Shown here in pieces: positions 1,504 to 27,790 of a DNA stretch of 64,000 nucleotides; positions within the stretch are counted from its first letter, which is position 1, and each line of letters begins with the position of its first letter. The notes beneath the pieces are model-generated. The model was not told where the DNA came from and ran no database searches. It was given only the letters and a program-made list of their open reading frames with translations. The position numbers and the translations under genes were made by a program. Source of the stretch: an uncultured Lentisphaerota bacterium (GTDB lineage Bacteria; Verrucomicrobiota; Kiritimatiellia; RFP12; UBA1067); contig CAMKJU010000003.1 of assembly GCA_946413265.1 (NCBI GenBank), forward strand, positions 9,087 through 73,086. The letters run 5' to 3'.

Positions 1504-4500
1504 TTGAAGCGTGGAACAAAATTGTTTTCGATGTTTGCGACGACGATGGGCGTCGCGCTGTCCGCGTTCGGCGCGGGCGTAACCGGCGACGACGCGAAGG
1601 GCGCCGTCACGGGATGGGTGCGGCTGCGTGAGGCGCTGGGCGACGAGATCGACGCCGAGCTGGAGTCGGTCGCGACGTATCCGGGTGCGGACGGCAGGGG
1701 CGAGTTCCACGTGGTGAGCCTGAAGGGCGGCGGCTACGTCATTACTTCGGGCGACACGGAGATCACGCCGATTCTCGGCTACTCGAAGACCGGCACATTC
1801 GACGCAGACGAGAACAGTCCGATGTGGGCGCTCCTGACGGCAGACGTGGCGGCACGGGCCGCGGCGGTGGAGGCAAGCGGTGGGACGACAGCAAGCGTAC
1901 AACAGCAAGGGGTACGGCTTGCGGCGGCGAGCGGGGGGACGACAGCAAGCGTACAACAGCAAGATGGGGGGACAGCAAGCGTACAACAGCAAGAGGGCAA
2001 TGCCGACCAGTGGTCGAGGCTCATGGCGGCGGGCAAGAGCGGCGGGAAGCGGCTTCAGGCGAAGATGTCGTCGCCGCCTGCCGACCTGCGCGTGGCGTCG
2101 TTCGTACGGTCGAAGTGGGGCCAGTCGACGGCGACGTCCGGGAATGGCTACACCCACAACTACTACAACAACTACACGCCGAACAAGTACCCGTGCGGAT
2201 GCGTGGCGACGGCATTTGCGCAGACGATGCGCTATTTCGAGTTTCCGAATACGTCCGTGACCCCGAAGACCTTCACCTGCAAGGTAAGCGGCACTGCCAC
2301 CGACTTGACGATGCAGGGCGGCACGTACGACTGGGCACACATGCCCTACGTTCCGCGCGAGGTGACGTATGACTGGAACAACGTGATCGGCATCGCGAAA
2401 CTGACTTCGGACGCCGGCATTTCCGTCTGCATGAGCTACAAGTCGGGCGGCAGCTCGTCGAGTTCCAGCCGCGTGGGCGACAGCTTCGTGAGCACGTTCG
2501 GCTATTCCAACGCCATCATGGACTACGAGAGCGGTGGCGTCAGGGGCAATACGTTCAAGAAGAACGTCATCCCCAGCCTCGACGCCAAGCTCCCGGTCAT
2601 CCTGGGCATACAGGGCAGGCCGACCGGCAGCGCGACGGCGGATGCCGGACATTCCATCCTGACGGACGGCTACGGCTACTACAACAACCAGCTCTACATC
2701 CATCTGAACATGGGCTGGAGCGGATCGGACGACGCCTGGTACACGCCTGCCGACTCCGACACGGGCGCCATAATCAATTCGAGCGGCTACGACTTCACGA
2801 ACATCACCTGCACGGTGTTCAACATCTTCACGAACGCGACACAGTATTCCGTCATCGCGAGCGGGCGTGTCCTCGACCAGAGCGGCGAGCCGATCTCCGG
2901 CGCGACCGTCACCGCGAAGTACAACAGCACCACATACGCCACCGCGACGAGCGATGCGTACGGCGTGTATGCGCTGATCCTGCCTCCGACCTCGTCGACC
3001 CGCACCTACACGGTGAATGCGACGTGTTTCGGCTACACGAGCACCGGGGCGCGGTCGGTCTCTGCCTCCCGGACGGTAGGCGACGATGTGATCAAGGATG
3101 GAAACAACTATACGGGCTCTTTCTACAACAGGGCGTCCAACAGCAATTCCTACGACAACGATATCACGATGGAGTCGGCCAACCTGCCGCAGGCCGCGAC
3201 GCCGACGAGCGCCACGGCGGCGGAGTTCGGGACGTCCGCAAGCGTGACGCTTACATGTTCGACGGCAGGGGCGTCCATCTACTACACACTCGACGGATCG
3301 ACGCCCACTGTCTCCTCCACGCTCTACACCGGGCCGATCACGCTCACGAAGACGACGACCGTGAAGGCGCTGGCGGCCAAGAGCGGCTACGCTCGCAGCG
3401 ACGTGTTCACGCGCACGTTCGTGAGCGCCGCCGCGATCGACGAGTTCTATTTCCGCCACGACTTCTCAAACGGCACGAGGGTGTTTACGGCGGGCGAGGG
3501 ATCCGGCCTGACGCGAGACCAGACCTCGAGTACCGATTCCAACGCCAAGGCGGTCGAAGGGCCGGACGGCCCCGGAACGGCGCATCACCCCGGAAACGTG
3601 TGGGGACAGTTCGAGGATCCGACCGTCCTGCACGGCGCGTGGTCCGCCGCCATGTCGCTCTGCATGGACGCCACTGAGACCGGCATACTCGTCAGCTTCG
3701 GACGCCTCAACAAGGCTGACCAGAAGGAAGTCGCGCTCCTCTCGTCCTCCACGAAGTCGAACTTCTACTTCAAGGTGATGACGACCGATTCCAACAAGGC
3801 GAAGAGCGTGGAGAACACGTTCACGGTCGTGACCACAAACGACTTGACAGTGGGCTTCCACTCGTTCGTCGTCGCCTACAAGCCCGCGTCGGACGTGCTT
3901 AACGGCATCGGTACGTTCGACATCTACTGCGACGGCGTCCTTGTCCGCACCGTCTCGACCGACACGCCGAAGCTGCTGGGCGCGGACGTGGGCGGAATGC
4001 AGTACTGCATGTTCATGAGCGGCGGGAGCGACCTCACCGCGCTTGGGGCCGTCTCTTCGCAGGCGAACGACGCGGTGGCATTCTACGACTTCCGCTTCTA
4101 CGACCGCGCGTTCACGGCGTCCGAGGCGGCGAAATACGCGGCCGCCTATTATCCGTACGATCCGAACACGCCAGCGCAGTGGACGAACAACGACGGCACG
4201 GGCTCGTTCGACAACGCGGCGAACTGGGCGAACGGCAGAGTCCCGCATTCCGGCGACTTCATCGTCAACATTTCCGGCGATACGGCGATCGCCGTGGCCA
4301 ACACCTACAATCTGGGCGCGATGACCGTGCAGGGGACGGGCAACGTGACGTTCACGGGCGCTGGAAGCATCGGCGCGACGACGCTCGACGTCGCTTCCGG
4401 CCTGACGGTCGATACGTGCGGGAAGCTGACAGTGACCGGTTTCACTGGCGCGGGGAATGTTGTTCTCACGCCTGCCTCCGGCACGCTCGCGATTTCGTCC

Positions 4501-8081: not shown

Positions 8082-9665
8082 TCAATGCTTTTTATTGGTT
8101 GCCGATGGGCGGGCGGAGCGGGCGCCGGCCATGGAATAGACATAGAGCGCCTTTTCGATCACGTCGGCGGCGTTGGAGGGGTTGTGCTGGGATATCCATG
8201 CTTCGACGCGGCGGATACAATCCTCCGGCGAGGTGGACGCGGCGATGACGGACTGGAGCGGCGCAAGGTCGGCGGCGAAGGCCCGTGCAAGGTCGTCGGC
8301 GCGGGTGGCGGCCGGGCGGTCTTCAACGGAATCGGCTGCGGAGAGGGGGACGGGCTGGGTGACAGCAAGCGTACGACAGCAAGAGGGAACGGGCTCGGTG
8401 GCCCGTCCATCAGCTGCGGCCACGGAGGGCCGCCACCCCGATAAGGGAGCCGAAAAGGGAAGCATCGGGGATTGGGGGATGGCCGCGCGGCGGATGCCGA
8501 AGCCGATGCGCTCGGAAAGGGTATTGAGGGCGTCATCATCCGGCTCGAGGCCGGCTTCATGGAGCTTGCCGATCACGGTGAGGGTGGCGGTCTGCTCGCG
8601 GGCGGATTCTGAGCCGAAGAGTATCTTCGGCGCGCGGCCCGTGTGGCCGTTGATCGTCAGGAGCTGCTCGAAGAGCTGGCTGCGGAGCGTCGCGGCGAGG
8701 GACTTAGCATCGGCTTTTCTGATGTCATCCCGCACTTCTCCCTGGAGGTTCGCGGTGCCTCCGCCGAGCTCTCCCGTGGGTGAAGCGTTGGAGGACAGGG
8801 TTTGTCCGACAATGAGCTTCGATATCTCCTGGTTGCAGATGGTGATGAAGCGCTCGTGGCTGTTGGATGAGTCGCCGTTCGCGGCCTGGACGATCTCGAC
8901 CTCGGTGTTTTTCGCGACGACGATCGCGCCGAGGCGCACGGCAAGCCGGAACGCGCGCTCGAGCGTGGCCTTGCCCTTATCATCGGAGTACTTGCCCTTC
9001 AGGAACGGGACGCCGAAGCGCTCGAGGAGATCGGCCCACCACTGGCGCGACATCGTGCGCAGCAGCCACCAGAAAAGGATGGAGCGCATCGCGCCGCCCC
9101 AGTTGTCGGGTACGGGCATGAGGTCGCAGCGGTGGACGATGTAGCGTTCCGGCGTGACCTCGTGGGAGGTGTGGAGCGGCGTGCCGGTGTTGTCCACGTC
9201 GAAGATGTGCATCGCGCCCTGCGAGTAATCGAGGAGCTGGTAGTGGACCGGCACGAGCGCCTTGAGCGCGAAACCGCCGCCGGGAAGCGGCGCGAACACC
9301 TTCTCCACGACGGCGACGGGGAAGAGCGTGGCGTTCATCAGCCACGACTGCGCATCCGCGAAGGTGGCGTTGTCGATCACGTCGTCGCAGAGGTCGCTCG
9401 CGGCGACGTCGGCGGGGTCGTTTTTCTTGAACGGGATGACCGTGACCGGATCGCCGAGGACGGCGATCTTGCGCTTCATGAACTCGGAGCGCACCTGGTT
9501 GTCGTTGGAGATGACGTCGCGGTAGAGCGCGAAGAGCTCGCGGGTGTCGCCGTTCTGCGCCTGATCGACGATGCCCATGAGACGGTCTGCGGTGAGGTAG
9601 CGCACGAGGCTCGGCAGCTCGCGGCGGGGATCGAGGACGGTGATCTGGTCGGTGTATTCCTTCAT
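8082..9665 (-). CDS. Mu gp29-like portal protein (DUF935 family)
   Basis: The N-terminal LVRYLTADRLMGIVDQAQNGDTRELFALYRDVISNDNQVRSEFMKRK pattern is typical of DUF935 portals. Lies directly downstream of terminase. Confidence 0.85.
   Translation of the reverse strand: MKEYTDQITVLDPRRELPSLVRYLTADRLMGIVDQAQNGDTRELFALYRDVISNDNQVRSEFMKRKIAVLGDPVTVIPFKKNDPADVAASDLCDDVIDNATFADAQSWLMNATLFPVAVVEKVFAPLPGGGFALKALVPVHYQLLDYSQGAMHIFDVDNTGTPLHTSHEVTPERYIVHRCDLMPVPDNWGGAMRSILFWWLLRTMSRQWWADLLERFGVPFLKGKYSDDKGKATLERAFRLAVRLGAIVVAKNTEVEIVQAANGDSSNSHERFITICNQEISKLIVGQTLSSNASPTGELGGGTANLQGEVRDDIRKADAKSLAATLRSQLFEQLLTINGHTGRAPKILFGSESAREQTATLTVIGKLHEAGLEPDDDALNTLSERIGFGIRRAAIPQSPMLPFSAPLSGWRPSVAAADGRATEPVPSCCRTLAVTQPVPLSAADSVEDRPAATRADDLARAFAADLAPLQSVIAASTSPEDCIRRVEAWISQHNPSNAADVIEKALYVYSMAGARSARPSATNKKH
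8361..8383 (+). repeat. 24-nt motif copy (GACAGCAAGCGTACGACAGCAAG) inside the portal gene, antisense to it
   Basis: Read directly from the sequence. Translated on the minus strand as SCCRTLAVT. Flanked by a 14/16 direct duplication (8346..8361 vs 8385..8400). Confidence 0.95.
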
Positions 9666-9681
9666 GGGGGCCTTTCTTTCT

Positions 9682-9711
9682 GGCCGATCACAGATCGGCC
9701 ATCAAATCTAT
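9682..9711 (-). repeat. hairpin boundary element, copy A (GGCCGATCACAGATCGGCC + ATCAAATCTAT)
   Basis: 8-bp stem GGCCGATC/GATCGGCC with a 3-nt loop. Lies between the TerL stop (9708) and the portal start (9665). Confidence 0.85.
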
Positions 9712-11360
9712 GAGTTGAGGATTGGGGTGGTGGGGCCGTCGTCGGGGGGCGGGAGCATGGTGAGGCGGGAGGTGGCGGCTGAAGCCGCCCGCTCCGATAT
9801 TGACGCAACGCGGGCGCCGATCTGCACCGCGTCGGCCTTGGCCTCCTCGGTGCCTTCGATGATGGCGTGGAGGGAAAGCTTGGTGCCGTCGAAGAGGTCG
9901 CCGTGGCGGCCGGTGGCGGCGTCGAGCGAGTTGTCGAAGCCGCCTTTCATCTTCTTGACGAGCCGGAAGTCGTCTTTTACGTTGAAGTCGTTCGGGACGT
10001 CGATCTGGCTTTCGTCGATCGCGTTGACGAGCAGCTGGCCGAGGTAGGTCTTGTAGAGGACTCGCTCGCCCATGAAGTCGAGCTTTTCGGAGTTCTTGAC
10101 GAGGATGACGTCGCAGACGCCCTCGAGCTCCTCGCGCACCTCGGTGGCCCAGTACACCTCGCTCGTGGCGTCGATGGCGACGGCCTTTGCCTTGAGGCGC
10201 GTCGCCAGCTCGCGGAGGATGGCCTTCGGCTTCTTGGGGTCCTTTGACTTGAAGGAGAGTATCAACTTCGTCGCATAGCGCCCGTCGATGCGCTGGGTTA
10301 CGGCGATGCCAAAGGGGTTGGACTTCTCGCCCTCCGTTGTGGCGGGGTCCGCGCCGATGCCGACGGGGCCTTTCGAGAGGTCGAAGAGGTGCTCCCAGCC
10401 GGGCGGCAGATCATCCTCGGCATAGACGCACCCGGCGCGCTCGCCGCGCTCCATCGCCTCCATGAGCTTGATGAGGCCGACGGCAGCAGATCCGCCGGTG
10501 ATGAAGAGGCAGCCGTAGTTGCGGTCCCAGGCGTCCTTGTCGAACGCGCGGCGGCGCGACTCCTCGGGCGTGACCGGCTGGGCGGTCTTGGTGTCGTAGA
10601 GCGCGACGCCGTCGGCGTAGGCGTCCCAGGCATCGACGCGCAGACAGGTGACGCCCTTGACGGATTCATAGACGTTGCCGGACGGCGAGACGGGGAACTG
10701 CATTCCCGGCGGGGGCGCAAGCTGCTCGAAGGAGTAGTGGGCGTCGTCGGGCGGCGGCGTGGTGAGGAGTAGAATGCGGAACTGCGGGTTCGAGGCGACG
10801 ATCGGCTCGACCGCCTCCCAGACGTCCTTCCAGTTGCCGATGCGGCCCACCTCGTCGCACATGAGGTCGCCGGTCTCGCCGACGGTGTCCGGACGGAGCG
10901 CGACCACCTTGGTGCGGGAGTAGGAGGAACGTGTGTGGTAGTAGCGGAACTCCAGGCGCGAATGCTCGAAGAGGTCGGCGAAGTCGTCGTGCGTGAGGCC
11001 GCTCACGCTGCGGCCGGTCTTGTCGTCGGCGAGCTGCACCTTGCCTTCCTCGAGGCGCGCCATCGCCGCCGAGATCGCCTTCTCGAAGACGGCGGCCTCC
11101 TTGCGCACGATCTCGCGCGAGAGATTGAGCTTGGCGGAGCCGAAGATGACGGTGTGGTCGCGGAGCTTCATCATCTTCTTGAGCGCGACGTTCGCGCAGG
11201 TGGTGGTCTTGCCGTACTGGCGGCGCGCGATGAAGCCGAGGAGGCGGTACTGCTCGACGAGCTGGAACAGGCGGCGCTGGCCCGAGCGCATCTGGATGAC
11301 GGGGGACTGGCCGATCACAGATCGGCCATCAAATCTATTGGCGGTGGCTGGGGATGGCAT
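9708..11360 (-). CDS. terminase large subunit
   Basis: Walker A context FIARRQYGKTT. Positioned between the DUF3486 small subunit and the portal. Start chosen at MPSPATANRF (GAAAGG RBS), with an alternative start at 11291. The 165-aa upstream extension in the ORF track was rejected. Confidence 0.75.
   Translation of the reverse strand: MPSPATANRFDGRSVIGQSPVIQMRSGQRRLFQLVEQYRLLGFIARRQYGKTTTCANVALKKMMKLRDHTVIFGSAKLNLSREIVRKEAAVFEKAISAAMARLEEGKVQLADDKTGRSVSGLTHDDFADLFEHSRLEFRYYHTRSSYSRTKVVALRPDTVGETGDLMCDEVGRIGNWKDVWEAVEPIVASNPQFRILLLTTPPPDDAHYSFEQLAPPPGMQFPVSPSGNVYESVKGVTCLRVDAWDAYADGVALYDTKTAQPVTPEESRRRAFDKDAWDRNYGCLFITGGSAAVGLIKLMEAMERGERAGCVYAEDDLPPGWEHLFDLSKGPVGIGADPATTEGEKSNPFGIAVTQRIDGRYATKLILSFKSKDPKKPKAILRELATRLKAKAVAIDATSEVYWATEVREELEGVCDVILVKNSEKLDFMGERVLYKTYLGQLLVNAIDESQIDVPNDFNVKDDFRLVKKMKGGFDNSLDAATGRHGDLFDGTKLSLHAIIEGTEEAKADAVQIGARVASISERAASAATSRLTMLPPPDDGPTTPILNS
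11309..11338 (-). repeat. hairpin boundary element, copy B
   Basis: Identical 30-mer to copy A. Lies 17 nt upstream of the alternative TerL start (11291), which places it inside the first 17 codons of the longer TerL model. Confidence 0.85.
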
Positions 11361-12634: not shown

Positions 12635-12722
12635 GAGGTAGGATCCTTTTCTGTCCTTGCGGGGGGAATGATACCACGGGAGGGGGCGGGAGCGCCCCGC
12701 GCCGTGCGGATGATGCGGTACT

Positions 12723-12750
12723 GGCCGAACGCAGTTCGGCCATCAAATCT
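12723..12750 (-). repeat. hairpin boundary element, copy C (GGCCGAACGCAGTTCGGCC + ATCAAATCT)
   Basis: Same element as copies A and B, with a compensatory stem change (T:A to A:T). Lies in the divergent intergenic region 12635..12820. Confidence 0.8.
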
Positions 12751-13839: not shown

Positions 13840-13871
13840 AAGGTTGAAAGGTTGAAAAGTTGAAAGGAAAG
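13836..13871 (+). repeat. tandem octamer array (GTTGAAAG)n in the intergenic gap
   Basis: gtgaaaggttgaaaggttgaaaagttgaaaggaaag spans the stop of 13303..13839 and runs up to the RBS of 13877. Confidence 0.9.
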
Positions 13872-13876
13872 AAAAC

Positions 13877-14712: not shown

Positions 14713-14748
14713 GTGAATAGCGAAGAGTGAATAGTGAATAGGTGAAAG
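14713..14748 (+). repeat. tandem heptamer array (GTGAATA/GTGAAAG)
   Basis: gtgaatagcgaagagtgaatagtgaataggtgaaag lies immediately upstream of the ATG at 14750. Confidence 0.85.
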
Positions 14749-15559: not shown

Positions 15560-16065
15560 ATCGCCGTTCCTGCCTTGTAAAGTGCGTCAAACTTGGCCTG
15601 GGCGAGGCTCGCGAGTTCCGCCTCGTTGACGCAGAACGTGGCTCTGTCGTTTGCCACGTCATACTCAAGACGCACAGCCTTGTCGTCCATGACCGCGAGG
15701 TTGATGCCGATGTTTTCCGGATGCGCCGCCCTGCGGATGTGGCTTCTCAGTTCAGGGTCAATGCCCTCAAGATGGGTAAGCGCTTCGGGGGTGACGACGA
15801 GCAAGGAGACCGCAACGCTCCCTCCCTTAACAGCTTTTGTGAGGGCATCTATGACACACGGACTCCACACCTCCGGATTCATGCGCTGCGCGACAGCGCA
15901 GAACGAATGTTTTGCGTGACCAATCATCTCTTCGATGATGATCGCGGCATGCTTCGGACTCGAGTTCTCGATTCGTCTGAACCCATCGGCTTCAAGCATG
16001 GCACACACTGCCTGACGGTAATCGTCAAGCAAGCGTTCATTTCGTACCCTGTCCTGCTCGTTCAT
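15556..16065 (-). CDS. cytoplasmic protein with degenerate PLD-like fold pattern (moron gene 1)
   Basis: The pattern IIEEMIGHAKHSFCAV...VIDALTKAVKGGSVAVSLLVV...INLAVMDDKAVRL resembles a PLD/Nuc-like domain, but INL replaces the HxK catalytic motif. This is a weak by-eye call. Confidence 0.35.
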   Translation of the reverse strand: MNEQDRVRNERLLDDYRQAVCAMLEADGFRRIENSSPKHAAIIIEEMIGHAKHSFCAVAQRMNPEVWSPCVIDALTKAVKGGSVAVSLLVVTPEALTHLEGIDPELRSHIRRAAHPENIGINLAVMDDKAVRLEYDVANDRATFCVNEAELASLAQAKFDALYKAGTAI

Positions 16066-16172
16066 CTCTGCGTTCTCCTGTTATCCCAAAAAGGGACGCG
16101 GACATTTTACCACAGCGCGGGTGGATTGCAAGCCGGAAATGTTGCGTTTGTTGCGCGCAACTTTCCGCCCCC

Positions 16173-16556
16173 TCACCCCTCACCAATCATCTTGCGCATC
16201 TTGTCCGCGAGCTTGCGGTGCGGGCAGCGGGCGCACTGCGGCAGCTCGCCGGGCACCTGCGGGGATCGGCTCTGACGTGAATCCCTGCAACCGGACGCCG
16301 GCATGACCGCCCCAGATCCCCGCGACTCAGCCCCCACCCTCTCCCTCTCATCAACCGACGACGACGAAACGCCGAGCAGATCGTTGGGGGTGGTGCCAAG
16401 AACTTGTGCGATATGTACAAGTTGGTCTAATGATGGCTCTCGCCGCCCTTTTTCATAATGACAATACACGGCTTGCTTGAGACCCAGACGGGCCGCAAAC
16501 ACACCTTGCGCTTCATTTCCTCGAAGCGCGACCAGTCGCTCAGAAAGGCAGCTCAT
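16173..16556 (-). CDS. XRE-family HTH repressor (Mu c / CI analogue)
   Basis: HTH QGVFAARLGLKQAVYCHYEKGRREPSLDQLVHIAQVLGTTPNDLL. Divergent from the early operon. Confidence 0.8.
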   Translation of the reverse strand: MSCLSERLVALRGNEAQGVFAARLGLKQAVYCHYEKGRREPSLDQLVHIAQVLGTTPNDLLGVSSSSVDERERVGAESRGSGAVMPASGCRDSRQSRSPQVPGELPQCARCPHRKLADKMRKMIGEG

Positions 16557-16676
16557 AAAAAAATAATACGAATTGTAAAAACACCCTTGCGCTCCGCTTA
16601 TACGTTTTGTATAATATCCCGCGTTGCCGCAAGGAGGGCAACGAGAAGTTTATCAAAAACGGTCAGAGGATAGAAG
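16557..16676. promoter_or_regulatory. divergent immunity/early promoter-operator region
   Basis: Minus-strand TATTAT (16568..16563) lies 6 nt before the repressor ATG. Plus-strand TTGCGC-17nt-TGTATAAT lies at 16587..16615. Direct repeats ATACGnnTTGTAWAA (16566..16580 and 16598..16613) overlap both -10 elements. Hairpin CGTTGCC/GGCAACG at 16622..16643. Confidence 0.6.
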
Positions 16677-16853
16677 ATGAAAAAGTTCGATACGATTCTG
16701 AGGCCATGGCGCGAGGCGCCGGTCTCGCAGGTGGCGGCGCGGATCGGGCGCTCGAAGAGCCACATCTGGCGCGTGCTCAAGGGCCAGCGCAAGCCGGGCC
16801 GCGAACTCGCGGCCGTGCTGCGCGACATGGGCTTCAAGGTGGAGGTGGCGTGA
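16677..16853 (+). CDS. Ner/Cro-like small HTH regulator (58 aa)
   Basis: VSQVAARIGRSKSHIWRVLKGQRKPGRELAAVL. First gene of the early operon. Under 60 aa, so absent from the track. Confidence 0.65.
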   Translation: MKKFDTILRPWREAPVSQVAARIGRSKSHIWRVLKGQRKPGRELAAVLRDMGFKVEVA

Positions 16854-16996
16854 TGTGGTGTTCAATGTGCCCGTTCTTCGCGGACTGCGAGGATCCCGCC
16901 AAGCTCGGCGGTGGATGCGATTGCGACGGCACCGACGACTTCGGCGTCGATCCGATCGACGATTTCGATGACGACGAAAAAGTGGAGGTGGAGTGA
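16853..16996 (+). CDS. small acidic Cys-rich protein (47 aa)
   Basis: ATG overlaps the upstream TGA. MWCSMCPFFADCED...DDFDDDEK. Confidence 0.35.
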   Translation: MWCSMCPFFADCEDPAKLGGGCDCDGTDDFGVDPIDDFDDDEKVEVE

Positions 16997-16997
16997 C

Positions 16998-17273
16998 ATG
17001 GAGAAGAAAAGGACGAAGGTGATACCAGGCGAGATCGAGCAGAGGATAGATAATCTGACTTTCTATGTTGAAAGCTATCTCAGGTCTGCAAAGCAAACTC
17101 TCTCATACGCCATTCCGCCGTTTGTCAACGAGATCAATGGATCGGCCACGGCCCTTGGTGGGGCCATTAGGTACATTGAGCGCGTAGAGCGCCTAGCCGA
17201 ACGCCGGATTGACGAGTTGAGATTCATCGCCGCGAAAAAGGCCGAAATCGCCAAGGCAAAGGAGGGAAAGTGA
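16998..17273 (+). CDS. hypothetical early protein (coiled coil)
   Basis: In-frame ATG 2 nt after the upstream stop, and a 4-nt overlap with the next gene. Confidence 0.5.
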   Translation: MEKKRTKVIPGEIEQRIDNLTFYVESYLRSAKQTLSYAIPPFVNEINGSATALGGAIRYIERVERLAERRIDELRFIAAKKAEIAKAKEGK

Positions 17274-17524
17274 TGAAACTGCGCAAGATTGACGTTCTGC
17301 TCGCAGAGCACAAGCCTCTGTCCGTAGAAGAAGGCAATGTCAAGAAGCTTGGCAGATATTACTACGAGGTCGAATGCCCGTTCTGCGGGAAAAAGAACCT
17401 TGTCTTCTTCAGGAACTTCTGGAAAGGCACGAGGTGCAAGAACAAGGACTGCCGCGCCATGTTCGACCGTTGCAACAGTGTGGCCTGGAGAGACATGGTG
17501 CCAGTGAGTGAGGCTAGAGCCTAA
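17270..17524 (+). CDS. zinc-ribbon protein
   Basis: CPFCGKKN...CKNKDC. Confidence 0.5.
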   Translation: MMKLRKIDVLLAEHKPLSVEEGNVKKLGRYYYEVECPFCGKKNLVFFRNFWKGTRCKNKDCRAMFDRCNSVAWRDMVPVSEARA

Positions 17525-17547
17525 ACAACAAGCGGACAACAGCAAGG
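17524..17547 (+). repeat. 24-nt motif copy (variant aACAaCAAGCGGACAACAGCAAGG) starting at the stop codon of 17270..17524
   Basis: Read directly from the sequence. Followed by AAAAGGAACCGAAG and the ATG at 17562. Confidence 0.85.
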
Positions 17548-17561
17548 AAAAGGAACCGAAG

Positions 17562-19058
17562 ATGAAACAGGAAAAGCCGCACAAGTTCTACGTCGGCGAG
17601 GGGTACGGCATCTGGGAGATGGACGGCGAAACCCACCGCCGCTTCCCCGACGTGTTCTACCGCGCGAAGCCCGGCGACTCGGCCGGCAAGTACACGATCG
17701 GCGACATGGCCGTCATGAACCAGCCGACAACCAAGAAGCGGTTCGGCATGTTCGTGATCGCGAACGTGGAGAGCGGCGACTTCGGCGGCACGGGGCTGAA
17801 GTACAAGCTCACGGTGCATCCCTACGGGACTCCGGAGGAGATCAGCGGACCGAAGCCCGCCGCCCCGATACAGCAAGCGGACAACAGCAAGGAAAAGGAA
17901 CCGAAGATGAACACTGCCAGTGGCGGACGGTGCAGATTCACAGATGAAAATGGATTCTGCACGAACGAAAACATGCAGGGCGGCGGATTCCGGTGCTTCG
18001 GCGCAGGGTGCGAATGCAGGGAGCCGATTCGCGGACCGAAGCCCGCCGCCCCGATACAGCAAGCGGACAACAGCAAGAAAGAACCGAAGATGAAAAGACC
18101 TACCTACAAGATGCAGCGCATCAAGCTCGCGGACTGCAAACCACACGCCGACGCGGAGGCCTACTCGGCCTCCACCGAGGACCGCGCCGCACTCGGCAAC
18201 TCAATCGAGGAGACCGGGGTGCTTTCGCCGATCGCCGTGGTGCCGGACGAGGACAGCAAGCGTACAACAGCAAGCAACGACGCCGAACCCCAGAAGTGGT
18301 TCGTGATCGACGGCATCGGGCGCATGAACGCCCTCATCGCCGCCGGCGAGACCGAGACCGACGCCCAGGTTTTCGACCTCGGCGATCTGAGCGTGGCCGA
18401 GTTCGTGGTGTGCAAGAACGCCATGATGCGCAAGGTCACAACCGGCACGCGCGTGATGGCATACCTGAAATGCCATGAACGCGAAGTACTGGCCGCTGCG
18501 GACCCGGAGAAGTACCAGGGCCGTAAAGAAAGCAAGTGGCGCAACAAGGTGGCTGCGGTTTCACGTGAAACCGCAGCCGACGAAAAGGGTTGGGGCGCGA
18601 AGGAGATAGCGGAGCGCATCGGGGTGTCGAAGAACGACGTGCTGGCGGGGATTGAGCTGCTGAAGGAGGTGAGCGGGGAGACAGAAAGCGTACAACAGCA
18701 AGGGAAGTACGTGCAGCTGGACCTCTTCGAGACGATGGACTCGGTGATGCACGGCGAGACGCCGATCAGGCGGTGGAAGGCGGCGGCGAGCGGCAAGGTG
18801 AGCAAGGTGGGCGGCAAGGCGGCCGCCGACTACGTGGGCATCGGCGCGCGCACGATGGTGAGCCTCATCGGGCTGTTCGAGAACTGGCAGACGGTCCCGA
18901 TGGAGAGCCGCGGGCCCATCGTCGAGCGGTTCAAGCTGGCGTTGGAGGCCGCGCCGGAGGATTTCAGGGCGGTGCTGGAGGATGTGGTTGGATCTCACGC
19001 AGAGGCGCAGAGAGGCAGAGAGCGCAGAGGGAAGTTCCGCAAAGGGACGCGGTGGTAG
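17562..19058 (+). CDS. ParB-like nuclease-domain protein with two stop-less N-terminal modules (candidate internal starts at 17907 and 18090)
   Basis: C-terminal part IKLADCKPHADAEAY...LGNSIEETGVLSPIAVVP...WFVIDGIGRMNALIAAG follows a ParB/Srx-like pattern. The modules are joined by the repeated GPKPAAPIQQADNSK(E)KEPKM linker. Confidence 0.65.
   Translation: MKQEKPHKFYVGEGYGIWEMDGETHRRFPDVFYRAKPGDSAGKYTIGDMAVMNQPTTKKRFGMFVIANVESGDFGGTGLKYKLTVHPYGTPEEISGPKPAAPIQQADNSKEKEPKMNTASGGRCRFTDENGFCTNENMQGGGFRCFGAGCECREPIRGPKPAAPIQQADNSKKEPKMKRPTYKMQRIKLADCKPHADAEAYSASTEDRAALGNSIEETGVLSPIAVVPDEDSKRTTASNDAEPQKWFVIDGIGRMNALIAAGETETDAQVFDLGDLSVAEFVVCKNAMMRKVTTGTRVMAYLKCHEREVLAAADPEKYQGRKESKWRNKVAAVSRETAADEKGWGAKEIAERIGVSKNDVLAGIELLKEVSGETESVQQQGKYVQLDLFETMDSVMHGETPIRRWKAAASGKVSKVGGKAAADYVGIGARTMVSLIGLFENWQTVPMESRGPIVERFKLALEAAPEDFRAVLEDVVGSHAEAQRGRERRGKFRKGTRW
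17847..17909 (+). repeat. extended ~60-nt unit (GGACCGAAGCCCGCCGCCCCGATACAGCAAGCGGACAACAGCAAGGAAAAGGAACCGAAGATG), copy 1
   Basis: Contains the 24-nt motif core at 17869..17892 plus an SD-like AAGGAAAAGGAA and an in-frame ATG. Confidence 0.9.
18033..18092 (+). repeat. extended ~60-nt unit, copy 2 (3-nt shorter)
   Basis: Motif core at 18055..18077. Ends in an ATG that starts the ParB-like module. Confidence 0.9.
18252..18274 (+). repeat. 24-nt motif copy, in CDS frame 1 (DSKRTTAS)
   Basis: Exact GACAGCAAGCGTACAACAGCAAG. Confidence 0.95.
18680..18703 (+). repeat. 24-nt motif copy (GACAGaAAGCGTACAACAGCAAGG), in CDS frame 2 (TESVQQQG)
   Basis: One mismatch to the consensus. Confidence 0.9.
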
Positions 19059-19082
19059 GACAGCAAGCGTACAACAGCAAGG
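19059..19082 (+). repeat. 24-nt motif copy forming the entire intergenic gap between the ParB-like stop and the transposase ATG
   Basis: TAG(19056-58)|GACAGCAAGCGTACAACAGCAAGG|ATG(19083). Confidence 0.95.
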
Positions 19083-20816
19083 ATGACCATGGAAAAGGCT
19101 GCGGAGAGATCGGCGAAGGTCGGCGAGGTGCGGCGGCTCGTGGCGGAGGGCGCGACGCTGGACGCCGCGCTGCTGGCGGCGGGGGTGAGCGAGACCACCT
19201 ACCGCCGCTGGGCGGCGAAATTCGACGCGGGCGGCGTTGCGGCGCTCTCGGACGCGCCGAAGAGCGGGCGGCCGCCGGTGGTGAAGCTCGACGAGGACGA
19301 GAAGAAGTGCCTGCGGCGCATCTACCTCCAGTCGAACCGGGCGGAGCGCAGCGGCTCGATGACGATGGCGGCGCGGATCGCGGCGCACGACCCGGCGACG
19401 TGCCTCCGGCCCGAGACGCGGGCGGCGATCCTCGCGGAGCGCTCCTCGAAGCACCACCTTCCGGTGGAGGTGCGCCGGGCGATGCGCGAGGTGTCGCCGG
19501 TGGCGGTGGCGCGTTACCGCGACCCGCGCGAGGGGCAGAACAACGGCATCTACGTGCCGGGGTGGCTGCGGCGCGACGAGGAGACGGGGCGGTTGCTGCT
19601 GCCGGGCGAGCGGCAGGTGTGGGACGACGCGAGCGTGAACGTGGCGGTGGCGGTGCCGTGGGCGGGGCGCGGGGACAAGGCGGGCGACCGCTGGGGATGG
19701 CGCGCGGCGCGCTACCAGCTGCTCGCCGGGATCGACTGCGCGACGGACTTCTTCTGCGGGTTCGGCTACGTGATGCGCACGAGCGACGGGTACCGGGCGT
19801 GCGACGTCGCGAACGTGATGCACGAGGTGTGGCGTCAGCAGGGGTACATGCCGAAGAAGGTGGTGCTGGAGGGCGGCAGCTGGCAGGCGAAGCCGACGAT
19901 GGACTTCCTGCGCACGGCGGGCGTGGGGGTGGTGGACGCCAAGGGCCGGCCGAACCAGAAGCTGGTGGAGAACTACTTCAACCGCCTCTGGACGGCGCTC
20001 TCGATCTTCCTTCCGGGCTACGGGCAGATCGGGCGGTACCGTGGCGAGATGCGCAAGGAGAACCTGAACTGGATGAAGGTGCTGAGCGGGAGCGCGGATC
20101 CGAGGAAATACTTCCCGACGCTGAAGACGTTTCTGGAGGCGCTGAACAAGGCCGTCGCCTACCTCAGGTGGGAGAAGGTGGAGAGCCGGATCTACGGGAC
20201 GTGGAGTCCGGAGGAGCTGTACCAGGGCGCGGCGGCGAACGGTCTGCCGCTCGTGGAGGGTCTGGAGCGGTACGCGATGCCGGTGGCGGCGCGCCGGACG
20301 CTGCGTCGCGGCGGGATGGTGTTCGTGACGGCGGAGACGCAGCTGGAGGGACTCAGGCACGAGTACGCCTTCGCGACGCGGGACGGCTGGAAGTACGACG
20401 GCGCGCCGGTGGTGGTGCGCTTCGACCCGGTGACGGCGGCGGCGCGGGGGGCGTCGATCGAGCTTGCCCAGGCGTGGCGCGACTTCCGCGCGGGGACGGT
20501 GATCGACGGCGCGGCGCCGTGCGTGAGCGCGCCTCCGGACTTCGTGAACGACGCGGGGCTTTGGGACCTGCGCGGCGCGGGCCGCCACGAGCAGCGGGCG
20601 AACCGCGCGGCGGTGCGCACGGTGGTGACGGCCTACGACACGCGCGGGCCGGTGCGGACGAGGTTCGAGGACGGCGAGGAGAAGGGCTGGGGGCTGCGCG
20701 GCGGCGTGCCCGCGGCGGCGGAGGCGCCGGAAGCGGCGGAGGAATGCGACAGCAAGCGTACGACAGCAAGGCTTGCGGCCCTGGAGGCGGAGGAGCGGAT
20801 GCTGGCCTACGCGTGA
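19083..20816 (+). CDS. Mu-like DDE transposase (MuA analogue)
   Basis: N-terminal HTH (GVSETTYRRWAAKFDAGGVAALSD). Candidate DDE residues in VWDDASVNV, LAGIDCATDFF and VVLEGGSWQ. Positioned upstream of the MuB-like ATPase. Confidence 0.8.
   Translation: MTMEKAAERSAKVGEVRRLVAEGATLDAALLAAGVSETTYRRWAAKFDAGGVAALSDAPKSGRPPVVKLDEDEKKCLRRIYLQSNRAERSGSMTMAARIAAHDPATCLRPETRAAILAERSSKHHLPVEVRRAMREVSPVAVARYRDPREGQNNGIYVPGWLRRDEETGRLLLPGERQVWDDASVNVAVAVPWAGRGDKAGDRWGWRAARYQLLAGIDCATDFFCGFGYVMRTSDGYRACDVANVMHEVWRQQGYMPKKVVLEGGSWQAKPTMDFLRTAGVGVVDAKGRPNQKLVENYFNRLWTALSIFLPGYGQIGRYRGEMRKENLNWMKVLSGSADPRKYFPTLKTFLEALNKAVAYLRWEKVESRIYGTWSPEELYQGAAANGLPLVEGLERYAMPVAARRTLRRGGMVFVTAETQLEGLRHEYAFATRDGWKYDGAPVVVRFDPVTAAARGASIELAQAWRDFRAGTVIDGAAPCVSAPPDFVNDAGLWDLRGAGRHEQRANRAAVRTVVTAYDTRGPVRTRFEDGEEKGWGLRGGVPAAAEAPEAAEECDSKRTTARLAALEAEERMLAYA
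20748..20771 (+). repeat. 24-nt motif copy in the transposase 3' region (CDSKRTTAR)
   Basis: GACAGCAAGCGTACGACAGCAAGG. Confidence 0.95.
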
Positions 20817-20890
20817 CCATTTCCCCGCGCGGAGAGGCTAGGACGCTCCGCGCGGGGGATTCAACAACCAACAAACCAAAGGAGCACAAG

Positions 20891-21070
20891 ATGCACACAG
20901 CAAGCAGAGAATGGGCGGACCGGGTGGCCGCCCGGAACGCGGTGGAGACCGCGAAGGCGCGCGCCGACGAGGCGCGAAAAAACGAGGCGCTTGCCGCGCA
21001 GGGCTTTCTGCCCCTCACCTACGGGGAGCAGCTGATCCCGCTGAGCGCAGCCGGGAAGGAGGCGGAGTGA
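20891..21070 (+). CDS. small hypothetical protein (59 aa)
   Basis: AAAGGAG RBS with an A/C-rich leader. Stop overlaps the next start. Confidence 0.45.
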   Translation: MHTASREWADRVAARNAVETAKARADEARKNEALAAQGFLPLTYGEQLIPLSAAGKEAE

Positions 21071-21408
21071 TGAAGAGAACGAAAGATGACGGTAACCGCC
21101 TTTCACAGTTGCTCGGTTCAATCAAGCGAGCCAGGACAACCGTGTTGGGCAGTACGGCCCAAATAGTCAAACTAGGTGAATGCGAGGATTCCCAGGCCAT
21201 TACTGCATTGAACAGAGCCGCCGTAAAATGCCTGCATCAGTCATGCTACTGGCTTGATCAGGCCGTGGATACACTTGAGCATTCGATCAAGAGAGTCAGA
21301 GAGACGGAAGATGCGGACAGCAAGCGTACTACAGCAAGGGTGCAGCCGCTTTCGCCGGAGGCGGAGCTTGCGGCCACGGTGGCGCGGCAGAAGGGAGAGA
21401 ATGCATGA
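21070..21408 (+). CDS. hypothetical early protein
   Basis: ATG overlaps the upstream TGA. Contains a motif copy read as DSKRTTAR. Confidence 0.5.
   Translation: MKRTKDDGNRLSQLLGSIKRARTTVLGSTAQIVKLGECEDSQAITALNRAAVKCLHQSCYWLDQAVDTLEHSIKRVRETEDADSKRTTARVQPLSPEAELAATVARQKGENA
21316..21339 (+). repeat. 24-nt motif copy (GACAGCAAGCGTACTACAGCAAGG)
   Basis: Read directly from the sequence. Confidence 0.9.
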
Positions 21409-21491
21409 GCGGGGACGAGATCATATTCTTCGTGTGGCTGGCCACGTGGCTGCCGTTCGCGATCGCCTACTTCATCAGCGAGGCGAAGTGA
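21405..21491 (+). CDS. tiny membrane peptide (28 aa)
   Basis: IIFFVWLATWLPFAIAYFI. Overlaps the upstream stop. Confidence 0.3.
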   Translation: MSGDEIIFFVWLATWLPFAIAYFISEAK

Positions 21492-21512
21492 CAGCAAGAA
21501 GAAGGAGCAAGC
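21490..21512 (+). repeat. decayed motif copy (GACAGCAAGaagaaggAGCAAGc) filling the gap before the MuB-like ATG
   Basis: Both outer ACAGCAAG/AGCAAG halves are retained. The upstream stop TGA overlaps the first bases, as at 27789. Confidence 0.6.
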
Positions 21513-22463
21513 ATGAAGAACCAAGTGGAAAACGAACTGGTGGAGACAGCCGCGAAGATCGCGGCGTGGGGCGAGTCGCACGGCATGAGCCGCGCGCAGC
21601 TCGTGCGCAACTTCACCGACCTCGGCAGCGAGAAGAGCTTCCGCGACATCTCGGCCGGGAACCTGGAGGGCTACAACGCGGAGAACCAGCTCACGAAGTA
21701 CCGGGCGGTGTACGCCACGATGGAGGAGCTGGCGAACCAGGGCGGCGAGGAGCGCATCTACGACGACCTCGGCACCGTGGTGAAGATCCGCAGGGCGTTC
21801 CTGGGCGTGGTGAAGGCCACGGGCACGAATCGCGTGCTGATCGTGCAGGGCGAAAGCGGCGTGGGGAAGACCACCGCCGTGGGCCTCCTGCGCGGCAAGT
21901 ACGGCACGGGGCGCATCAGCTACGTGGAGGCGAGCGACGTGTGGGCGGACTCGCCCAACGCCTTCCTCGGCGCGATCCTGCGCGCGCTCGGCGTCACGGA
22001 GCTGCCGGCTGGGCGCGTGCAGCGTCTGGAGGAGGTGCAGGCGCGGCTTGCGATCTCGCGGCGGTGTCTCGTGATCGACGAGGCGCACCACCTCGGCCCG
22101 CACTGCCTCAACACGGTGAAGACGCTGGTGAACACGACGCCGGGGGAGTTCATCCTGGTGGCGATCCCGACCTTGTGGAACAAGCTGCAGGCGCACGCCT
22201 ACCAGGAGGCGAAGCAGATCGCGACGAACCGTCTCTCGGAGCGCGTGAAGCTCACGCTCGACGAGGCGGACATCCGCACGTACCTCTCGAAGCGGTTCAA
22301 GGACGCCCAGCCGGCGGAGCTTAAGGTTGCGGCGAAGATCATCCGCCCCAACGCGCTCCTCGCGGGCAACTACGCCTTCGTGCGCGACGTGGCGCGCGAG
22401 CTCGCCTCGCTCGAGGCCGACGCGGTGAGCCGCGCGGTGACGGCGGTGACGGGGAGAAGGTAG
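21513..22463 (+). CDS. MuB-like AAA+ DNA transposition ATPase
   Basis: Walker A GESGVGKTT and Walker B LVIDEAHHL. Downstream of the transposase. Confidence 0.8.
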   Translation: MKNQVENELVETAAKIAAWGESHGMSRAQLVRNFTDLGSEKSFRDISAGNLEGYNAENQLTKYRAVYATMEELANQGGEERIYDDLGTVVKIRRAFLGVVKATGTNRVLIVQGESGVGKTTAVGLLRGKYGTGRISYVEASDVWADSPNAFLGAILRALGVTELPAGRVQRLEEVQARLAISRRCLVIDEAHHLGPHCLNTVKTLVNTTPGEFILVAIPTLWNKLQAHAYQEAKQIATNRLSERVKLTLDEADIRTYLSKRFKDAQPAELKVAAKIIRPNALLAGNYAFVRDVARELASLEADAVSRAVTAVTGRR

Positions 22464-23199: not shown

Positions 23200-23386
23200 G
23201 TGGACAAGGCCGAAGAAGGCCGAAGACAGCAAGCGCACGACAGCAAGTGCGCCGAAGCCCGAGAAGCCGAAGGGCGACAAGCCCCAGGCCGAAGAGCTGA
23301 AGCCCGAGAAGCCGAAGGGCGGCAAGCCGAAAGGCGGCAAGCCGAAAGGCGACGATAAGCCCAATGGCAAGAAGGAGGCCAAGTGA
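23189..23386 (+). CDS. small lysine-rich protein with KPKG repeats
   Basis: AAAGGAGG lies 8 nt upstream. PEKPKGDKP...PEKPKGGKPKGGKPKGDDKP. Confidence 0.5.
   Translation: MPVKWTRPKKAEDSKRTTASAPKPEKPKGDKPQAEELKPEKPKGGKPKGGKPKGDDKPNGKKEAK
23225..23247 (+). repeat. 24-nt motif copy (GACAGCAAGCGCACGACAGCAAG)
   Basis: Two mismatches to the consensus. Read as DSKRTTAS. Confidence 0.85.
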
Positions 23387-26752: not shown

Positions 26753-27790
26753 ATGGGCAAGCCAGACAAAGTGATACTTCTTCGCACAACCGGCGTCGCC
26801 GTGAGCCTTTCGGCTGACGCGGCGAAGCTGCCGCGCCGGATCAAGGTGCTGAACTGGGGCGACAACCCGAACTGCCACGGGAAGCGCGTGAACGTGGGCG
26901 CGCTCTTCGTGAAGTGCCTGAACGCCGACACCTATCCCTACCGCAAGGTGGCGCTCGACTTCGAGCACAACACCTTCCCCGGCACGGCGGCGTACAAGGA
27001 GTCGAAGGAGCCGCGTCCCGTCGCGGGCTTCGGCACGATCGAGGCCGTCGAGGGCGACGGCGTGTACATCACGATGTCGAGCTGGACTCCGGACGGCGAG
27101 AAGATGGCGGCGAACTACGCCGACGTCTCGGCCGGGGCCGTGACCGACAAGGAAGGCAACCTCGTGGCCGTGGCGAGCGTGGCGCTGTGCCGCGCCGGCG
27201 CGGTGGACGGCATGGATTTCGTGGAGGCGCCGCTGAGTGGCGGTATCTCTTCCGCGCTGAGCGGAATCATCAACAACCAGGAAGGCGGGCTGAAGCCCGC
27301 CGCTCCGATACAGAAAGGAAATGCAATGGACTACAAGGCATTGCTATTGAAGCTGCTGGGGCTTGGCGAGGACGCCACGGACGAGGCCATTCAGGCCGCG
27401 CTCGATGCGGCCGGCAAGAAGCCCACGCAGGAGGAACAGGACGCGGCACTATCGGCTGCGGTGAAGACTGCTGTCGCGGAGGCCGTGAAGCCGATCGAGG
27501 AGAAGGTGGCCGCGCTTTCGGCGGCAGCCGTCGCCCACGAGAAGGCCGACCTCATCGCCGAGGCCGCCCGCGAGGGCAAGGTGATCGCGCTCGGCGCGGA
27601 CGCCATCGGGAAGATCACGGTCGAAGACCTGAAAGCCACGATCGCGAAGACGCCCGTGACGGTGCCGCTCAACGCGAAGACGCCGACGAACATGAAGGAG
27701 AATGCCGCCGAGGGCGATGTGCCCGAGGAGCTGCGCCAGATCGCGCTCAACTGCGGGGTGAGCCCGGATATCTTCAAAGCGGGGAAGTGA
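26753..27790 (+). CDS. Mu gpI-like head protease with nested scaffold (internal start at 27326)
   Basis: The RIKVLNWGDNPN...VALDFEHN pattern matches the Mu-like prophage I protein. The C-terminal Ala/Glu-rich helical part begins at MDYKALLLKLLGL, after an SD-like AAAGGAAA. Confidence 0.8.
   Translation: MGKPDKVILLRTTGVAVSLSADAAKLPRRIKVLNWGDNPNCHGKRVNVGALFVKCLNADTYPYRKVALDFEHNTFPGTAAYKESKEPRPVAGFGTIEAVEGDGVYITMSSWTPDGEKMAANYADVSAGAVTDKEGNLVAVASVALCRAGAVDGMDFVEAPLSGGISSALSGIINNQEGGLKPAAPIQKGNAMDYKALLLKLLGLGEDATDEAIQAALDAAGKKPTQEEQDAALSAAVKTAVAEAVKPIEEKVAALSAAAVAHEKADLIAEAAREGKVIALGADAIGKITVEDLKATIAKTPVTVPLNAKTPTNMKENAAEGDVPEELRQIALNCGVSPDIFKAGK
27292..27313 (+). repeat. copy of the 5' half of the extended unit (GAAGCCCGCCGCTCCGATACAG) before the nested scaffold start
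   Basis: Matches 17852..17873 and 18038..18059. Translated as KPAAPIQ. Confidence 0.8.

Follow-up and report, generated by a model that had tools for sequence, protein, structure and literature searches.

The window analysed here is a stretch of 64,000 nucleotides from an uncultured Lentisphaerota bacterium (assembly GCA_946413265.1, contig CAMKJU010000003.1, positions 9,087 to 73,086 of the forward strand), and it holds an open reading frame (ORF) that encodes a ParB-like module joined to two further modules. The early genes around this ORF belong, from Pfam and PHROG annotation of the window, to a Mu-like transposable prophage in a rumen-type host of the Kiritimatiellae. The ORF itself runs from 17508 to 19058 on the plus strand without a stop codon and encodes 516 aa when read from a GTG or 498 aa when read from the ATG at 17562. 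Module 1 (M1; 17562..17906, +) has 115 aa, made up of a beta-rich domain of ~95 aa and the linker GPKPAAPIQQADNSKEKEPK, whilst module 2 (M2; 17907..18089, +) is a Cys-rich unit of 61 aa, in which the Cys-rich part takes up ~40 aa and a second linker is included. The ParB-like module (18090..19058, +) has 322 aa, with an N-terminal domain of the ParB/Srx type, a helix-turn-helix (HTH) and a helical C-terminus. A first-pass annotation of this DNA had already claimed that no stop occurs across 17508-19058 and that three units start at the ATGs 17562, 17907 and 18090, each behind a copy of the same cassette; translation of the ORF bears out the first two points and a comparison of the repeats bears out the third.

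The cassette is a direct repeat of 61 nt found at 17834-17894 and again at 18020-18080, the two copies being 92% identical, and its 3' 47 nt recur at 17520-17566 (94%) as an intergenic leader directly after the stop of a Lar-like gene. This leader of module 1 (17520..17561, +) begins at the TAA (17522-17524) of the Lar-like gene, contains a 23-nt repeat at 17524-17546 with 3 mismatches, then the Shine-Dalgarno (SD) sequence AAGGA and a spacer, and is predicted to be unstructured as RNA. Junction cassette 1 (17834..17894, +) is composed of a segment coding for GPKPAAPI and the 23-nt repeat at 17869-17891, with an SD and the ATG 17907 next, and junction cassette 2 (18020..18080, +) is the second 61-nt copy, with its 23-nt repeat at 18055-18077 and an SD and the ATG 18090 next. 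Each linker is a copy of a translation-initiation leader, in which an ATG and its SD AAGGA follow the 23-nt interspersed repeat, with the GPKPAAPI-coding segment as an extension at the 5' end; the phage uses this segment again at the junction of its gpI protease and scaffold. That junction (GLKPAAPIQKGNAM; 27285..27328, +) has, at 27285-27317, the 5' half of the cassette and, behind it, AAGGA and the ATG 27326, which is in frame; the earlier annotation had also pointed out this reuse.

As no stop interrupts the leader in the frame of its own ATG, a stop-less module placed upstream of it would give an in-frame fusion, and as the cassette is repeated, homologous recombination or slippage between its copies could add or remove modules with the frame left intact. 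The initial view of a modular ORF, the joints of which are copies of a leader that carries an SD and an ATG, is supported.

A profile search of all three modules, as had been suggested with the first description of the ORF, finds a family for the ParB-like unit only. This module matches PHROG 4715 'ParB-like partition protein' (E=1.2e-10), has a weak profile match to Caulobacter ParB (PDB 6t1f, E=0.0028), and PF02195 is precomputed on many of its close homologues. The ParB/Srx box motifs NSIEETGVLSPIAVV, VIDGIGRMNA and KGWGAKEIAERIGVSKNDV are followed by the HTH, and nearly every residue is, by eye, invariant among 20 homologues. On these similarities the module can be accepted, weakly, as a member of the ParB/Srx DNA-binding family, although its competence as a CTPase is uncertain because the second Arg of GERR is missing. 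No PHROG family was found for M1 or M2 and no Pfam match for M1, which weakly resembles Big_12 Ig-like repeat proteins, and of the mere 10 proteins that a search with M1 and M2 gave, most are fragments, either truncated or frameshifted. AlphaFold models the whole ORF poorly (mean pLDDT 50.6), with a confidence of <50 over both linkers and also a low one (33-44) in M2 between them. The C-terminal tail of the ParB-like module, SHAEAQRGRERRGK (18992-19030), is encoded by a short repeat of the GCAGAG type; in some orthologues the tail has a GSPGTARPT repeat or a copy of the 23-mer instead (KRTTAR in P0100).

Module combinations in orthologous loci

For comparison there are ~50 orthologous loci with DNA, selected by their ParB-like gene, 53-99% identical and given here as L-numbers. 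The ParB-like module stands alone in L086, L024 and ~15 more loci, with the same ATG as its start and with another gene upstream that ends in an ordinary stop, and in the two named loci it is precisely at 18086-18089 that nucleotide identity to the window sets in. It also stands alone in L112 and L121, with the cassette as its 5' untranslated region (5'UTR). The combination M1-ParB is found in at least 20 loci (53-97% identity), M3'-ParB in L124, M3'-M2-ParB in L105 and L106, and M1-M2-ParB in the window and in L111, the 5' end of which is cut within M1. More distant relatives (L154, L155) have a free-standing M1 of 93-106 aa with a normal stop.

A stop codon between modules was found in none of the ~50 orthologous loci. 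The first-pass annotation, which had pointed to orthologues as the place to look for such stops, had offered separate genes that have lost their stop codons as one possibility, and as a description of the present state this is not supported by the fused orthologues (53-97%), in which no inter-module stop is seen. Since such stops are missing over so deep a divergence, the fusion protein itself is conserved, and to judge from these comparisons the ORF from 17562 to 19058 is one real multi-domain protein of the early operon, in the order M1-linker-M2-linker-ParB. In L151, which is 94% identical, AAG replaces the ATG of ParB, so the internal start is lost.

Near-identical relatives differ in the presence or absence of M2 between the cassette copies. 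Thus L113 is the window minus M2 and L124 is L105 minus M2, with both crossovers inside the shared 23-mer, SD and ATG, and from these breakpoints we infer that modules are gained and lost by recombination or slippage between in-frame copies of the cassette. It is part of the modular theory of phage evolution that short conserved boundary sequences promote the exchange of modules. As in mosaic phages, modules here are swapped where they share a short sequence, and every combination is met with in the population, but the joint lies inside one stop-free ORF and preserves the frame, so that protein domains are swapped and not genes. An artefact of assembly can be ruled out, as the architecture and the motif occur in dozens of independent assemblies.

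The 23-nt repeat in phage and host

The 23-nt core of the repeat, GACAGCAAGCGTACAACAGCAAG, was taken from a logo of 212 distinct copies and is the 8-mer ACAGCAAG twice, 14 nt apart, that is an 8-6-8 direct repeat that is non-palindromic and predicted to be unstructured. The window has 17 copies at <=3 mismatches, against 0.00 expected from 100 shuffles, with six copies in 1.6 kb starting at 17524, 17869, 18055, 18252, 18680 and 19059, and 12 copies in 10.8 kb of phage. The earlier reader had seen these six copies, their three reading frames and that the site is a direct repeat and no palindrome, all of which agrees with the motif scan and translation, yet had missed 11 further copies that lie outside the cluster at the ParB-like ORF, so the motif is not special to this ORF.

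Within the cluster QQADNSK is encoded three times, the first of these copies being in the leader, followed by DSKRTTAS and TESVQQQG. The DSKRTTAS copy (18252..18274, +) lies in a variable loop of the ParB N-terminal domain and is an insertion relative to the DGKGW of distant orthologues, where the window reads DSKRTTASNDAEPQKW. The TESVQQQG copy (18680..18702, +), which has 1 mismatch, lies in a hypervariable segment after the HTH. The sixth copy (19059..19081, +) forms the leader of the gene that follows, with AAGGA at its 3' end as the SD for the ATG at 19089. Elsewhere in the window one copy, at 20748, is in the C-terminal tail of a MuA-like protein (aa 556 of 577), a second portal gene of the Mu type has one antisense copy in its C-terminal tail, and another antisense copy is in the signal-peptide region of a host gene for a 1,700-aa surface protein. 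Three more copies (1887..1993, +) are found in a host C10-peptidase gene, where they encode GGTTASVQQQ three times between the I69 inhibitor and C10 domains. The tandem copies of this peptidase are spaced 54 and 30 nt apart and an in-frame ATG comes after the last of them. All coding copies in the window are confined to linkers between domains, variable loops and protein tails, and the density of the 23-mer is higher in the prophage than in the host DNA that flanks it. That the 23-mer is free of stops in six frames is no special property of it, as 43% of random 23-mers of the window are the same.

The motif was also sought in public genomes, one genome per species. At least 104 loci carry it, almost all of them in metagenome-assembled genomes (MAGs) of the rumen Kiritimatiellae/Lentisphaerae type, and its exact sequence is conserved across many species. 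Among the 104 motif-selected loci listed, 97 are unrelated to this phage and 7 resemble it, and the 23-mer is absent from 26 of the 49 ParB-selected loci. By a crude coding call from ORFs and GC content at third codon positions, in loci that are mostly of the host, at least 166 of 222 copies are in apparent coding DNA, in all six frames, with 131 sense and 35 antisense. The other contexts are leaders just 5' of the ribosome-binding site (RBS), inverted doublets that would form hairpins (a minority), tandem arrays of 27, 30 or 66 nt, and positions nested within other repeats. The flanks of the copies show no sign of a target-site duplication, and neither the 23-mer nor its complement was found in any paper of the literature searched; the element appears to be undescribed. 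From where its copies lie, the 23-mer is a lineage-wide short interspersed repeat of the linkers, variable loops, termini and leaders of host and phage genes.

Very small dispersed repeats (SDRs) within genes were reportedly described in cyanobacteria by Elhai et al. in 2008, and the Rickettsia palindromic elements (RPEs) are known to be inserted in frame in genes. The 23-mer is like both in being a scattered unit of 20-odd nt in coding and non-coding DNA, in its presence or absence among orthologues, in its nesting and in being tolerated in frame. It differs in belonging to a phylum of the Planctomycetes, Verrucomicrobia and Chlamydiae (PVC) group, in being a non-palindromic 8-6-8 direct repeat, and in being sense-only in phages and often 5' of an RBS, and its mobility is only putative. 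The term SDR is used in PMC3116915, which also describes REP/REPIN elements as short, abundant and lineage-specific. The 23-mer shares these three features, and some of its inverted doublets would form hairpins, but it is not a REP/REPIN element, as its unit is non-palindromic and predicted to be unstructured, its location is mostly intragenic rather than extragenic and its doublets are a minority rather than the main form. A resemblance to a CsrA-like site or to an Hfq (ARN)-like site was seen by eye only and was set aside.

Other repeats are found at the same sites. L024 carries a different repeat, GGCTCGCCGGGGACGGCTCGCCCCACC, exactly at the site in the ParB loop where the window has its copy at 18252 (7400-7430 of L024). 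This repeat has the same 8-6-8 layout and encodes GSPGTARPT; in sister phages it takes up those variable sites that the 23-mer also occupies (P0004, P0063, P0100), and copies of it form inverted arms on either side of the 23-mer in host DNA. A T-free repeat, GCAAAGAACGCAGAGAACGCAAAG, is in the position of the 23-mer in the ParB leader or linker of L114, L119, L122, L123 and L130, and also at L106:6177; its presence there in motif-free phages suggests that repeats specific to host lineages colonise the same leader. Heptamer tandems, (GTGTAAA)n and (GTTGAAAG)n, are found directly 5' of the SD of several phage genes (22462-22501, 23133-23172, ~13840-13876 and 14714-14739), and in some sister phages (L144, L132) the ParB leader has a similar array in place of the 23-mer. 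The leader of the MuB-like gene (21489-21512) has the half-motif GACAGCAAG only, then AAGAAGGAG and the ATG, so in leaders the working unit may be the 8-mer. A small phage gene has, directly 3' of a 23-mer copy, a 15-nt periodic repeat (23251-23355) coding for Lys/Pro-rich units of the PEKPKG type.

The palindrome and the prophage around it

Within the ParB-like gene there is a perfect palindrome of 28 bp, GGCTGCGGTTTCAC|GTGAAACCGCAGCC (18551..18578), that is a candidate for a ParB site, a hairpin or both. Its core is GTTTCACGTGAAAC, which we take to be the canonical parS core; the segment GGTTTCACGTGAAACC at 18557-18572 matches canonical parS at 14/16 positions and has the exact 14-nt core. 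The palindrome is unique, no second one of this kind being found in the window, and it is kept in 30 distinct orthologous sequences (including L024, L086 and L105-L141), with a length of 26-32 bp. The outer arms vary wholly yet symmetrically (GGCTGCG, ACCAGCG, GGCAAA, CCGTGCG, CCATGCG, CGGCGCG, TTAATGCG), paired changes occur in the core too (GTCTCA/TGAGAC, GTGTCA/TGACAC), and the central dinucleotide varies freely. Both sides have changed in 9 of 14 pairs, and 93% of cells are paired compared to 34-37% in slid controls, with 0/500 shuffles reaching what is observed. The peptide over the palindrome is mirrored (AAVSRETAA, PAVSRETAG, RAVSHETAR), which indicates that a nucleotide constraint overrides the protein sequence at this place. 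As RNA the palindrome is predicted to fold at -28.5 kcal/mol (z = -4.4).

Conservation of the core points to a site bound by a dimer, and covariation of the outer arms to a hairpin or cruciform, or to a self-templated correction of a quasi-palindrome. It is known that a chromosomal parS lies inside the parB (spo0J) gene, the canonical site being TGTTTCACGTGAAACA. The palindrome at 18551-18578 is like it in having the exact 14-nt core and in lying within a gene of the ParB family, and is unlike it in that the gene is that of a transposable prophage with no ParA, in its 26-32 bp with covarying arms and a free central dinucleotide, and in that a hairpin fits as well. As a candidate site it would be a likelier target of the ParB-like protein than the 23-mer. 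A ParA partner, as would be expected of a ParABS system, is absent among the neighbours (the Lar-like zinc protein, the MuA-like transposase and the AAA_22/TniB-type MuB-like ATPase), and because of this a ParABS partition system is not accepted.

The early operon of the prophage has an XRE-type repressor gene (16173-16556, minus strand), a Ner-like gene and, before the ParB-like ORF, the Lar-like zinc protein gene, which ends at the TAA 17522-17524. After the ORF comes a putative MuA-like transposase gene (19083..20816, +; 577 aa), the product of which is recognised in a domain search by an N-terminus that matches HTH_29 and HTH_32, without a confirmed DDE core. Pfam and PHROG also identify an AAA_22/TniB-type gene for a MuB-like ATPase in the neighbourhood, and the same prophage has genes for a Mu F-like protein and a Mu gpI protease (PF10123). 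A scan of 16000-21600 for promoters and terminators gave none on the plus strand within the ParB-like ORF, and at gathering thresholds no Rfam family is found anywhere in the window. Terminal inverted repeats were sought between 14-16.7 kb and 39-44.2 kb with chance matches as the only result, and the 23-mer is no transposase end site of the Mu type, the prophage being flanked by no inverted copies of it. The named homologues and the genomes with the motif are rumen or gut MAGs labelled as Kiritimatiellae or with the older labels Lentisphaerae and Verrucomicrobia. Relatives of the ParB were sought in the viral contigs of IMG/VR and none were found, and a literature search on prophages of Kiritimatiellae and ParB-like genes of Mu-like phages gave nothing directly useful.

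Two further repeats of the window lie away from this operon. A hairpin repeat of 30-43 nt, CTGGCCGATCACAGATCGGCCATCAAATCT, occurs three times (9667-9709, 11294-11336, 12708-12750) in what remains of a second Mu-like prophage, which is truncated and lies on the minus strand, with one copy just 5' of the start of its portal gene (8082-9665). The host C10-peptidase gene, which encodes 1,838 aa, has an internal duplication of ~1.5 kb, with segments of 4177-4860 and 5713-6375 being 85-90% identical.

Competing readings of the locus

Taken together, the joint reading is that of a fusion protein with linkers that are leader copies and act as recombination joints, a 23-mer that is a dispersed repeat, and a palindrome that is the likely target of the ParB-like protein; we would give this a probability of roughly 60%. 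Several observations weigh against it. Pfam finds no domain at E<=0.01 in the whole ORF protein of the window, and because of that the ParB match has to be called weak. The covariation of the outer arms would fit a hairpin better than a duplex binding site, and both the direction of the module events, insertion or deletion, and the recombination mechanism are taken from breakpoints only. If the repeat were purely passive, it would also not be expected that the 62 copies in the 49 ParB-selected phage loci have a sense to antisense ratio of 62:0. Of the distinct phage copies 27/54, many of them orthologous and thus not independent, lie within 30 nt 5' of an SD and ATG (at 7-19 nt) compared to 5.7% of random positions, which is ~9-fold. 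There are almost no decayed copies, the spectrum of mismatches from 0 to 6 being 24, 21, 20, 10, 4, 3 and 4. In a second clade the M1-ParB linker also carries the motif, read in another frame as DSKRTTAR and with an in-frame ATG 19-20 nt further on, and this recurrence may reflect a function at the nucleotide level there.

The internal SDs and ATGs may also yield shorter isoforms, and a stronger version of this is that the ORF is a stop-less polycistron, in which the cassettes are working internal starts that mainly give M1-M2-ParB, M2-ParB and ParB in set ratios and are kept for that reason. In phage Mu, gene I and gpZ provide the known case, with protease and scaffold made from one frame through internal initiation. 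The ORF of the window is similar in having an in-frame SD and ATG at a domain boundary within a longer frame, and in that the ATG is conserved among orthologues except L151; unlike in Mu, the cassette is duplicated, joins unrelated modules to a ParB-like protein and contains a genome-wide repeat, and the shorter products are only predicted. Since the nested start of gpI and scaffold in the same phage shares the 5' half of the cassette, nested products are plausible. An AAGGA SD stands at normal spacing before every internal ATG, in RNA predicted to be unstructured, the 18090-type ATG is the true start in the ParB-only sister phages, with the cassette as 5'UTR in two of them, and the NCBI gene call for L105 begins at the internal ATG of M2 despite an open frame upstream. 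The ATG is retained in nearly all the fusions of clade 1, and the motif of clade 2 is again 19-20 nt ahead of an in-frame ATG, another one. Set against this is L151, which is so close to the window and has AAG for the ParB ATG, and that conservation of the SD and ATG may merely reflect recent duplication of the leader. We regard the polycistron as a tentative alternative, clearly behind the reading of a fusion protein with leader-derived joints.

A second alternative that is possible, though again doubtful, is that the 23-mer is a functional strand-specific signal of host and phage that is selected at module boundaries. It could be a leader or standby enhancer, a site for an RNA-binding protein or small RNA, a processing site, or an iteron-like DNA site for a host protein. 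The strand ratios, both in phage loci and in the coding copies of the host-dominated loci, the enrichment 5' of the SD and ATG, the half-motif in the MuB-like leader, and the exact conservation across many species with its steep mismatch spectrum would all be in keeping with such a signal, as would the other T-poor repeats that motif-free sister phages carry at the same leader position. Because of the strict sense orientation and the position 5' of the RBS, a role at the level of the transcript is kept as a live rival. However, the contexts of the 23-mer are heterogeneous, with six frames, hairpin doublets, arrays of 27, 30 and 66 nt and nesting, it behaves as an insertion at hot spots that are also taken by other repeats, the ParB-only sister phages have the same gene without it, and there is no Rfam match. 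Furthermore, the peptides encoded by its antisense frames are hydrophobic or rich in Cys, and this by itself would be enough to bias coding copies to the sense strand. Both alternatives could be merged, with the 23-mer and the analogous T-poor repeats forming a shared transcript-level signal that marks starts, programmes nested isoforms and doubles as a recombination joint, and this we hold to be improbable.

It is very unlikely that the 23-mer is akin to the DNA uptake sequences (DUS/USS) and has been spread by biased uptake and recombination. It is lineage-specific, strongly over-represented and the same in many species, and has coding copies in tolerated frames and inverted doublets, as do DUS/USS; but its strand bias (62:0 and 131:35) is strong rather than neutral, its copies arise as insertions relative to orthologues and not by substitution, it occurs in tandem arrays and leaders, its 23 nt are far longer than known uptake sequences and it is denser in the prophage than in the host flanks of the window.

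Some partition systems use direct repeats, such as the P1 parS boxes and the iterons of ParR and omega, and this, together with the local clustering, lay behind the suggestion of the first-pass annotation that the six copies are a centromere or parS-like array bound by the ParB-like protein. This can hardly be upheld with a motif that is host-wide and in unrelated genes (the host peptidase and surface protein), with nearly all of its listed loci unrelated to the phage, with over half of the ParB-selected loci and the ParB-only sister phages that lack the upstream cassette being free of it, with 3/6 copies existing only because the leader cassette was duplicated, and with a better candidate in the same gene in the form of a palindrome with a parS core, palindromes being what HTH-type ParB proteins bind.

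The locus is a leader that doubles as an in-frame linker and as a recombination joint, around an apparently undescribed lineage-wide repeat. It is also a trap for annotation, as a cluster of motifs on a ParB gene mimics a centromere when a lone palindrome within the coding sequence is the parS-like site. A leader without stops in its own frame can serve as a flexible linker and, once repeated, as a joint for the gain and loss of domains, which is a simple route to multi-domain proteins, and a natural population displays all the intermediates of domain addition and loss. The strict strand orientation of the 23-mer makes a functional role of it directly testable, and its abundance in the little-studied Kiritimatiellae of the rumen makes it a possible marker of the lineage and a possible signal for assigning phages to their hosts.

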